Origin: Escherichia coli
GTDB taxonomy: Bacteria > Pseudomonadota > Gammaproteobacteria > Enterobacterales > Enterobacteriaceae
Direction: 5' to 3' (one strand)
Length of the DNA: 64,000 nucleotides
Assembly (NCBI RefSeq): GCF_003991155.1
Contig: NZ_CP031294.1
Numbering within the stretch: position 1 is the first letter of the stretch; every line of letters starts with the position of its first letter. The notes under the pieces are model-generated. The model was not told the DNA's origin and did no database searches. It saw only the letters and a program-made list of their open reading frames with translations. Shown here piece by piece: positions 21,340 through 21,489 of this stretch. A program made the translations under genes and the position numbers.

Positions 21340-21489
21340 CCGTTGTGGTGGCCGGTACTGAATCTCCGGCATACGGTGCAGCCAATTAGGACTACGGACG
21401 ATCACCGCTCGCGAAAGGGAAGATTTGCGGCCGCATTTCCCTAACATCCAAGAAAGCTATCGCATCAGTCTGCGAATCCACCACAACGG
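21340..21489 (-). ncRNA. candidate structured stable RNA within the tRNA cluster
   Basis: 12-bp closing helix CCGTTGTGGTGG (21340-21351) paired with CCACCACAACGG (21478-21489). It encloses several local hairpins. No ORF and no tRNA fold. Confidence 0.3.

Follow-up and report, generated by a model that had tools for sequence, protein, structure and literature searches.

The tRNA cluster of phage T4 encodes, on the tRNA strand, two non-tRNA RNAs of about 120-140 nucleotides (nt), rnaC (species 1) and rnaD (species 2), which are cut from the tRNA precursor and whose function is still unknown. Small structured RNAs are also made by P1-like phages; the C4 RNA of P1 and P7 and the CI RNA of P4 (RF01695) are freed from a longer transcript by RNase P, a precedent for the excision of a non-tRNA in this phage group. 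GOLLD and ROOL, structured RNAs with no assigned function, come from phage and prophage genomes, where they often lie beside tRNA genes, mostly in Firmicutes and their relatives. The tRNA-like domains of transfer-messenger RNA (tmRNA) and YrlA combine an acceptor-like closing helix, a 3' hairpin stacked on that helix and a large foreign domain at the place of the anticodon arm. Here we describe a helix-closed element of 150 nt (positions 21340-21489, minus strand) within a tRNA cluster of a 64,000-nt stretch of Escherichia coli DNA (contig NZ_CP031294.1; hereafter the window). Judged from sequence comparison, the element is one member of a large phage RNA family in Gamma- and Betaproteobacteria, the B-cassette family, in which a closing helix (P1) and two hairpins (P2 and P3) form a conserved core around a variable insert.

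None of these nearest analogues is homologous to the element. The original prediction had likened it to the T4 RNAs, and the likeness held in one part: the element appears to be a structured non-tRNA RNA that is co-encoded with tRNAs. The element is not related to rnaC or rnaD: the covariance model of the family described below (R1) found nothing at the T4 tRNA locus, and the sequences, folds and architecture differ. The T4 RNAs have no P2/P3 core, rnaC has a canonical T arm, and both are confined to T4-like phages, whereas B cassettes are found in many types of phage and at places without tRNAs as well. C4 RNA differs in its length (about 77 nt), its fold and its defined antisense target; Rfam gave no RF01695 match at the element, and it recognised a genuine C4 elsewhere in one locus of the family (L012). 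Unlike the tRNA-like domains of tmRNA and YrlA, the family has no T-loop sequence in P3 and no robust CCA end. ARAGORN found no tmRNA, the element region gave only a chance-level YrlA match, which lay over a real tRNA, and no linked rsr or smpB gene was seen among the neighbouring open reading frames (ORFs) of the family. GOLLD and ROOL are 500-800 nt long, against a core of about 60 nt plus an insert in Proteobacteria here, and no Rfam match to them was obtained. In architecture only, the core is also like a purine-riboswitch-type junction, with a closing helix of free sequence, two loop-pairing hairpins and conserved junction nucleotides; that junction is three-way and not four-way as here, and neither an expression platform, a regulated gene nor an Rfam match accompanies the family. 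The put antitermination RNA of HK022 was rejected as a relative because R1 had no significant match anywhere in the HK022 genome. As a phage structured RNA without an assigned function, the element is of a known kind, here with a modular scaffold-plus-insert design.

The region of the window is 98% identical to Escherichia phage CMS-2020a and matches many E. coli plasmids of about 110 kb, and we therefore consider it part of a P1/P7/D6-like phage-plasmid. ARAGORN called minus-strand genes for tRNA-Asn (21734-21808), tRNA-Tyr (21642-21728), tRNA-Thr(UGU) (21562-21637) and tRNA-Ser(UGA) (21251-21337). The Asn/Tyr and Tyr/Thr spacers are 5 and 4 nt long and the Thr/Ser spacer is 224 nt (21338-21561), confirming that a long gap interrupts an otherwise tight array. 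As had been claimed, this gap does not hold a further tRNA; for a tRNA or tRNA pseudogene, ARAGORN made no call there and RF00005 gave no match at E up to 10. The perfect 12-nt inverted repeat on which the original prediction was built is present, with CCGTTGTGGTGG at 21340-21351 facing CCACCACAACGG at 21478-21489 and the arms 126 nt apart; by our own estimate, the chance expectation of such a repeat within 224 nt is about 0.001. Both inner hairpins named at that time are likewise found in the sequence, CCGG-N10-CCGG at 21352-21369 and GGGAA...TTCCC around GCGGCCGC at 21417-21441. The further hairpin placed at 21527-21559 needs redrawing: there is structure at this place, and it is better represented as a 12-base-pair (bp) helix of 21541-21552 with 21490-21501, which closes a neighbouring module that we call cassette A. 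The minimum-energy fold of the 150-nt minus-strand RNA contains the 12-bp closing helix, the 5' and 3' terminal hairpins and some inner stems. On the minus strand, the transcription unit runs from an ATP-dependent DNA ligase gene through the tRNAs, the gap and tRNA-Ser to a 20-bp hairpin and a predicted intrinsic terminator (21077-21096), which closes the unit.

Sensitive BLAST searches with the gap gave the first relatives, at 75-89% identity, in unannotated DNA of unrelated phages: Klebsiella phage BUCT_49532 (Jedunavirus), the phages HC6 and BUCT610 of about 47 kb, and 73-kb phages (24-32N). These are alike at both ends of the element only, and the middle differs. Scans of a viral contig collection with two exact patterns, one anchored at each end of the element, returned at least 120 loci each. 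The consensus of 140 distinct cores reads, from 5' to 3', a P1 strand of at least 7 nt with free sequence, the linker AAU, P2 (GCGCA-GGCUGA-UGCGC), an insert of 27-163 nt, A(A/U), P3 (GCCGG-AGAUCAGCA-CCGGC) and, directly abutting P3 without a linker, the 3' strand of P1. The window copy follows the same order, with the P1 5' strand CCGUUGUGGUG (21479-21489), the linker J1/2 with GAU (21476-21478; AAU in 123 of the 140 cores), P2 as UCGCA-GACUGA-UGCGA (21460-21475), an insert of 89 nt (21371-21459) that includes the GGGAA/UUCCC stem, P3 as GCCGG-AGAUUCAGUA-CCGGC (21351-21370, equal to the CCGG-N10-CCGG hairpin) and the P1 3' strand CACCACAACGG (21340-21350), after which come CC (21339-21338) and position +1 of tRNA-Ser at 21337. 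In the family register, P1 has 11 bp (21340-21350 with 21479-21489), and base 21351, which was the partner of 21478 in the twelfth pair of the inverted repeat, goes to the 5-bp P3. Note that the loci were collected through exact patterns in the conserved core, so that divergence of the core is under-sampled, and that many loci are recent copies, so that counts of sequences are not counts of independent events.

The covariance model R1 was built from 38 members, with window-type and BUCT-type sequences excluded, and all of its E-values are rough. Within the window, its only significant match was the element (21343-21486, minus strand, 59.4 bits, E about 3e-14, full model length). The element also shows the marks of the family outside the model: P1 of 11-12 bp directly abuts a 5-bp P3 (GCCGG/CCGGC), the linker is GAU, and the loop GACUGA goes together with the complementary P3 loop AGAUUCAGUA. 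Elsewhere, R1 detected three copies in JL22 (95, 62 and 27 bits), two in P7 and two in D6; it gave only 10.6 bits on the lambda copy and, besides the T4 tRNA locus and HK022 mentioned above, no match in Cyrano or the K-12 prophage regions. A weak partial match at 29512-29573 of the window (minus strand, 15 bits, E about 0.04), which has a P2-like hairpin ACGCAGAUUUGAUGCGU and no P3, may be due to chance or may be a relic.

The family is spread over hundreds of phage and prophage loci, including P1, P7, D6, Stx phages and lytic phages of Klebsiella and E. coli. The P3 21-mer AGCCGGAGATCAGCACCGGCC was found identically in 64 species-representative genomes of Gamma- and Betaproteobacteria, among them Enterobacterales, Pseudomonas, Stenotrophomonas, Halomonas and many Burkholderiales; the P3 loop of the window departs from the consensus 21-mer AGCCGGAGAUCAGCACCGGCC. 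Sequences at least 95% identical to the window type are present in 140 complete E. coli genomes, all on plasmids, and another insert type (L035) is present in 845 of 5,426 complete E. coli genomes; both types are unannotated among the matches listed. Rfam 15 has no family over the element (whole window at gathering thresholds; region of the element at E up to 10), and at gathering thresholds nothing overlapped the element at 27 further related loci. No paper turned up in a full-text literature search for conserved 16-17-mers, which did not extend to the older work on P1 and lambda, and keyword searches gave only other prophage small RNAs (sRNAs; the Pas family and StxS) without sequences to compare. 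The Pas sRNAs of pathogenic E. coli have neighbourhoods similar to those of the family. Since the late regions of the DLP12 and Qin prophages of E. coli K-12 contain no copy, no K-12 sRNA name applies to the family.

To weigh the proposed structure, 65 diverse cores were aligned with the insert cut out (alignment A1), and the pairs were counted. In A1, 92.6% of the cells pair (a percentage inflated by the instance finder, which demanded pairing) against 79.2% in shuffled alignments, and none of 500 shuffles reached the observed value. Changes on both sides occur at 19 of the 25 pairs, the covariation score is 0.362 against 0.112, and shifting the partner by one to three columns lowers the pairing to 30-48%. 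The inner seven pairs of P1 show four to five pair types each, all five pairs of P2 change on both sides, and three of the five pairs of P3 covary (TCGG/CCGA, CAGG/CCTG), the remaining ones being invariant. Because of the pairing demanded by the finder, a set anchored on P3 only was also examined; here 89% of P1 was paired, compared with 60% once shuffled, and the 89 distinct cores contained 43 different 7-mers; this set lessens the selection for pairing but does not abolish it. The original prediction had staked itself on conservation and compensatory substitution of the closing helix in related elements, and pairing was indeed held across dozens of differing sequences.

The data also point to one strand. 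Under a strand-symmetric detection rule, G-U pairs outnumber A-C juxtapositions 55:26 (P1, 27:7; P2, 11:3; binomial p about 0.002), each of the 55 tRNAs that lie no further than about 900 nt from a family member has the orientation of the element, and many loci have an intrinsic terminator just downstream on the strand of the element. Together, these observations indicate an RNA that is read from the minus strand of the window.

The two hairpin loops of the core may contact each other. The P2 loop, GCUGA(U), is complementary to the P3 loop, (A)UCAGC; among the 65 cores, four of the five possible pairs are invariant and the fifth is G-C in 53, G-U in 6, A-U in 2 and something else in 4. The window type belongs to the compensated A-U cases, in which ACUGA (21465-21469) faces UCAGU (21357-21361) after a G-to-A change in one loop and a C-to-U change in the other, and D6 differs from P7 at that one loop base, giving G-U. 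The pattern is suggestive of a loop-loop (kissing) interaction between P2 and P3, which we regard as a candidate with thin support.

The inserts, or cargo, are extremely diverse, as 134 distinct inserts fell into 86 unrelated types. A local BLAST search of all inserts against 2.8 Mb of fetched loci found only other copies of the element, and a T-arm-like hairpin was seen in 3 of the 86 types. Diverged relatives of the window insert were found only in BUCT_49532, where the element follows an HNH endonuclease gene, and in the lambda-like contig L321. Between the window and these relatives, the insert stem AGGGAA/UUCCCU becomes AGGCGA/UCGCCU, which amounts to two compensated pairs. By this comparison, core and insert travel as one between very different genomic contexts.

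The surroundings of the element vary even among close relatives. P7 and D6 have the same 150-nt element together with further modules in a gap of 446-465 nt, and JL22, a P1 relative, has an array of related modules of about 900 nt after tRNA-Thr; phage P1 itself has a match to the same cassette at 97.8% identity. In Cyrano, tRNA-Thr and tRNA-Ser are separated by 8 nt (ACACAATT, L001 3268-3275), with no cassette and with one CACAA motif kept, which suggests that cassettes are gained or lost through recombination between short repeats. In the first scan, members adjoined tRNAs in 23 of 127 loci. In lambdoid phages, members lie between the Q antiterminator and the lysis genes, that is, in the leader of the late operon. 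Lambda itself (NC_001416, 44789-44935; L128 490-636) has, just after tR', a cassette A with consensus-identical flanks and a degenerate B cassette with the closing strands GUUGUGCUG/CAGCACAAC. A paper from 1988, cited in PMC7547250, reportedly concerns RNase III sites in the late transcript of lambda. In 54 of 243 contexts, members lie downstream of cI/LexA-like repressor genes, and further contexts are positions after HNH-AP2 endonuclease genes and in replication/recombination modules. The L035 type (8018-8250) appears as a stand-alone gene, located after an upstream terminator and downstream of a cI/LexA-like repressor gene. Its P1 begins about 11 nt downstream of a promoter-like site (TTGACA-18-TACATT), on whose flanks lies an operator-like inverted repeat (ATGTAGGATAACCAACAT / ATGTTGGATATCCTACAT); beyond the cassette come a hairpin with a large loop and a run of T. 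At 17 loci from non-enteric genomes, no tRNA was found in the fetched 8-kb stretch. Clustering of the neighbouring ORFs revealed no consistent partner protein family, the neighbours being diverse.

Two annotated ORFs overlie the array of the P1 relatives. In JL22 (L325 1420-2320), the strand opposite to the tRNAs bears annotations for plp, a putative lipoprotein ORF, and for the small ORF that follows it, over the tandem array of A and B cassettes. The doubtful opposite-strand plp ORF is also annotated over the array in the P1 relative RCS47, and the second small ORF is listed as upl in P1. Both may be mis-annotations of the RNA array. Knock-down by CRISPR interference of P1 trnT, plp and upl, the genes annotated over the homologous array, gave them a non-essential score (PMC10695390), which is consistent with an accessory role.

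A strand-specific, covarying and conserved structure with a variable insert, situated within a tRNA transcription unit, leads us to read the element as a real structured RNA module on the tRNA strand, co-transcribed with the tRNAs, tRNA-like in its connectivity and probably excised by tRNA-processing enzymes; we put the probability of this reading at roughly 0.6. The connectivity of the core matches that of the tRNA cloverleaf, as a resemblance and not as membership. P1, with a conserved length of 7 bp, would correspond to the acceptor stem, P2 to the D arm, the 5-bp P3 stacked on P1 to the T arm, and the insert to the anticodon and variable regions, while the loop-loop pairing would replace the tRNA elbow. 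The transcript would carry the RNAs in the order Asn-Tyr-Thr-A-B-Ser, where A and B are the two cassettes, and the enzymes that mature the tRNAs would release the element. Its 3' end would be produced by the RNase P cut at +1 of tRNA-Ser, 2 nt past the helix, and its 5' end by RNase III, RNase E or RNase P, acting within cassette A or after it; processing of the element by RNase P or RNase E is something we only infer. More tentatively, the core might act as a scaffold for folding, processing and stability, or offer a conserved host factor a place to dock, and the insert might carry a lineage-specific accessory role.

Several points weigh against this reading or against parts of it, in addition to the detection biases given with the alignments. 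The fold of the element is only moderately more stable than that of shuffled sequences (z = -2.4), so that thermodynamics alone lends weak support and the strong support is comparative. The inserts fold no better than shuffled sequence (median z = -0.34 over the 86 types), and the insert could be a merely tolerated spacer. Linkage to tRNA clusters is lineage-specific and not general. Beyond connectivity, the tRNA-like features are weak: P3 lacks a T-loop sequence, as mentioned, and CCA after P1, present at positions 8-11 in 43 of 124 raw cases, was found in 12 of 40 P1 families when counted per family, against 14, 12, 5 and 5 in control windows. In the window, P1 is followed by CC and then by tRNA-Ser. 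Finally, the case for loop-loop pairing hangs on a single variable position, and both loops had served as search anchors.

The same features could be those of a purely cis-acting processing signal, in which the core and cassette A direct the RNase P and RNase III cuts that mature the flanking RNAs, the excised piece has no role and the insert is filler. On a tRNA, RNase P reads the acceptor-like helix, the T-like hairpin and the elbow, and the core conserves an acceptor-like helix, a T-like hairpin and a possible elbow with a free insert in place of the anticodon arm. Two nucleotides separate the helix from +1 of tRNA-Ser, the inserts show no unusual degree of structure, and members lie within long untranslated leaders such as the lambdoid late leader. 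In addition, cassette A can be extended to a 24-nt duplex (21478-21501 with 21541-21564, 83% complementary), which has the length of an RNase III substrate, reaches the CCA end of tRNA-Thr, overlapping it, and looks, from its sequence, like a double-strand-specific (RNase III-type) processing site. However, the stand-alone copies with their own promoter and terminator have nothing to process, many loci have no nearby tRNA, and Cyrano matures these tRNAs although 8 nt and no cassette lie between them. The stem sequences are near-invariant over two proteobacterial classes, beyond what a signal of shape would need, and the diverged cargo relative retains its stem through compensatory changes. We therefore think it unlikely, although worth keeping in view, that the element is a cis-acting signal and nothing else.

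A more ambitious version of the RNA-module reading would make the family a shared tRNA-shaped phage scaffold, whose core docks onto a conserved host component (for example, RNase P or another reader of the tRNA elbow and acceptor stack) and whose hypervariable insert gives lineage-specific specificity as a decoy, sponge or antisense segment. We hold this to be doubtful. A nearly invariant core over two proteobacterial classes combined with dozens of insert forms does point to a conserved partner plus a diversifying function, and if the docking scaffold were real, the family would be a diversifying set of RNA effectors in conflicts between phage and host or between phages, which P1 carries in tandem arrays and lambdoid prophages carry as stand-alone genes beside immunity repressors.

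Alternatively, the core could be a catalytic or ligand-binding RNA, that is, a compact pseudoknotted four-way junction representing an aptamer or a new self-cleaving ribozyme for the trimming of phage transcripts, with the insert as an optional peripheral stem. Small ribozymes and aptamers typically have a conserved core with covarying stems and a variable periphery, and phages are rich in several ribozyme classes, some of which lie beside tRNAs. The small core of the family fits this description: its loops and junction (AAU, A-A/U) are close to constant, its stems covary, and the length of its peripheral domain differs between members. Yet no known family of self-cleaving ribozymes or riboswitches in Rfam 15 matched even at E up to 10, neither an expression platform nor a consistent downstream gene was seen, and no conserved candidate cleavage site is evident, so that this alternative appears improbable.

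Patchy distribution over unrelated phages and genome positions raises the question of a DNA-level mobile or recombination cassette, either a miniature transposable element with 12-bp terminal inverted repeats or an integron-like unit, whose hairpins would be by-products. The empty site of Cyrano with its single CACAA motif, the differing cassettes at the same site in close relatives (P1, P7/D6 and the window), the ACAAC motifs that border cassettes and the HNH endonuclease genes adjoining some copies would all suit such a cassette. In contrast to the end of an element bound by a transposase, the terminal repeat changes freely with pairing kept (the 43 7-mers among 89 cores), and the conserved parts are internal and are not mutual inverted repeats. 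The excess of G-U over A-C speaks for selection on a single RNA strand, and no recombinase is consistently linked. A miniature inverted-repeat transposable element was rejected on the free, compensated variation of its repeat, on the missing flanking target-site duplication and on the Cyrano empty site ACACAATT. An integron attC site was rejected since, by inspection, the enteric helix GTTGTGG...CCACAAC is the reverse of the RYYYAAC ... GTTRRRY order, the motifs are wholly missing in non-enteric members and no integrase is consistently linked. A DNA-level explanation is accordingly very unlikely, and an RNA module could itself be mobile as a unit. Despite its position in a tRNA array and its cloverleaf-like connectivity, the idea that the element is a decayed tRNA gene or a functionless chance hairpin can practically be dismissed, as neither ARAGORN nor the Rfam tRNA models call it, the same non-tRNA core recurs near-unchanged with compensatory changes in hundreds of loci over two proteobacterial classes, and the window-type copy is held at 95% identity or more in its 140 E. 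coli genomes.

If the family is as unrecorded as the literature and Rfam suggest, an abundant structured RNA has gone unannotated in some of the most thoroughly studied phages, including P1, the Stx-converting phages and the relatives of lambda. Should the structured RNA module be real, the family is a testable candidate for the use of the tRNA-processing machinery by phages to make non-tRNA RNAs, and its core would be a natural scaffold that tolerates foreign inserts of 27-163 nt.

Cassette A (21490-21552, minus strand), which abuts P1, consists of the 12-bp helix around a variable loop, with a fold z-score of -2.5. Its counterpart is conserved in other loci as GGUAAGAGCAUUG...CAGUGCUCUUUCC, and the helix covaries across loci. 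The extended duplex takes the 5' strand of P1, and because both use this strand, the extended duplex and P1 are mutually exclusive. In the window and in the enteric lineage, an ACAAC segment upstream can pair with the start of P1; as a family-wide switch, this upstream alternative pairing was rejected, since it was found in 12 of 34 P1 families against 11 of 34 in a control window. By eye, a canonical hairpin of T-arm type (GGGUUCGAAUCCC and variants) often forms the end of the loop in enteric A cassettes, adjoining the 3' helix strand (L008, L010, L017, L020, L027, L067, L082, L103 and L325 1440-1490), and such hairpins seem commoner there than in the inserts. In some of these loops, a hairpin with a 7-nt loop stands ahead of the T-arm-like one, giving the whole the appearance of a tRNA that lacks its D arm. 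Short hairpins with purine-rich loops (GCCGGGAAAGACCGGC, CUCCACGAAACGGAG, GCCGGAACCGUAACCGGC) often precede cassette A or B, as seen in L002 (about 100 nt upstream of the element), L132, L148 and L325 (1815-1835 and 2098-2116).

The 20-bp hairpin between tRNA-Ser and the terminator (21171-21248, minus strand) is a further helix-closed module, similar to cassette A, with 95% complementary arms and a fold z-score of -8.5. It is also present in Cyrano, and its stem resembles those of the P7 A cassettes. The tRNA-Ser(UGA) gene in front of it rests on the ARAGORN call; the general Rfam tRNA model missed it, the tRNA-Sec model reached 46.6 bits with a cut-off of 47, and in the D6 record tRNAscan-SE assigned no amino acid to its counterpart. 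Past the terminator, the region 17344-21072, which adjoins the tRNA operon, has the look of an accessory- or defence-type islet, with a low-GC orphan ORF of 302 amino acids without a Pfam match (20164-21072, plus strand), a YafO-family toxin gene (18621-19031, minus strand) and a tyrosine integrase gene (17344-18447, minus strand).

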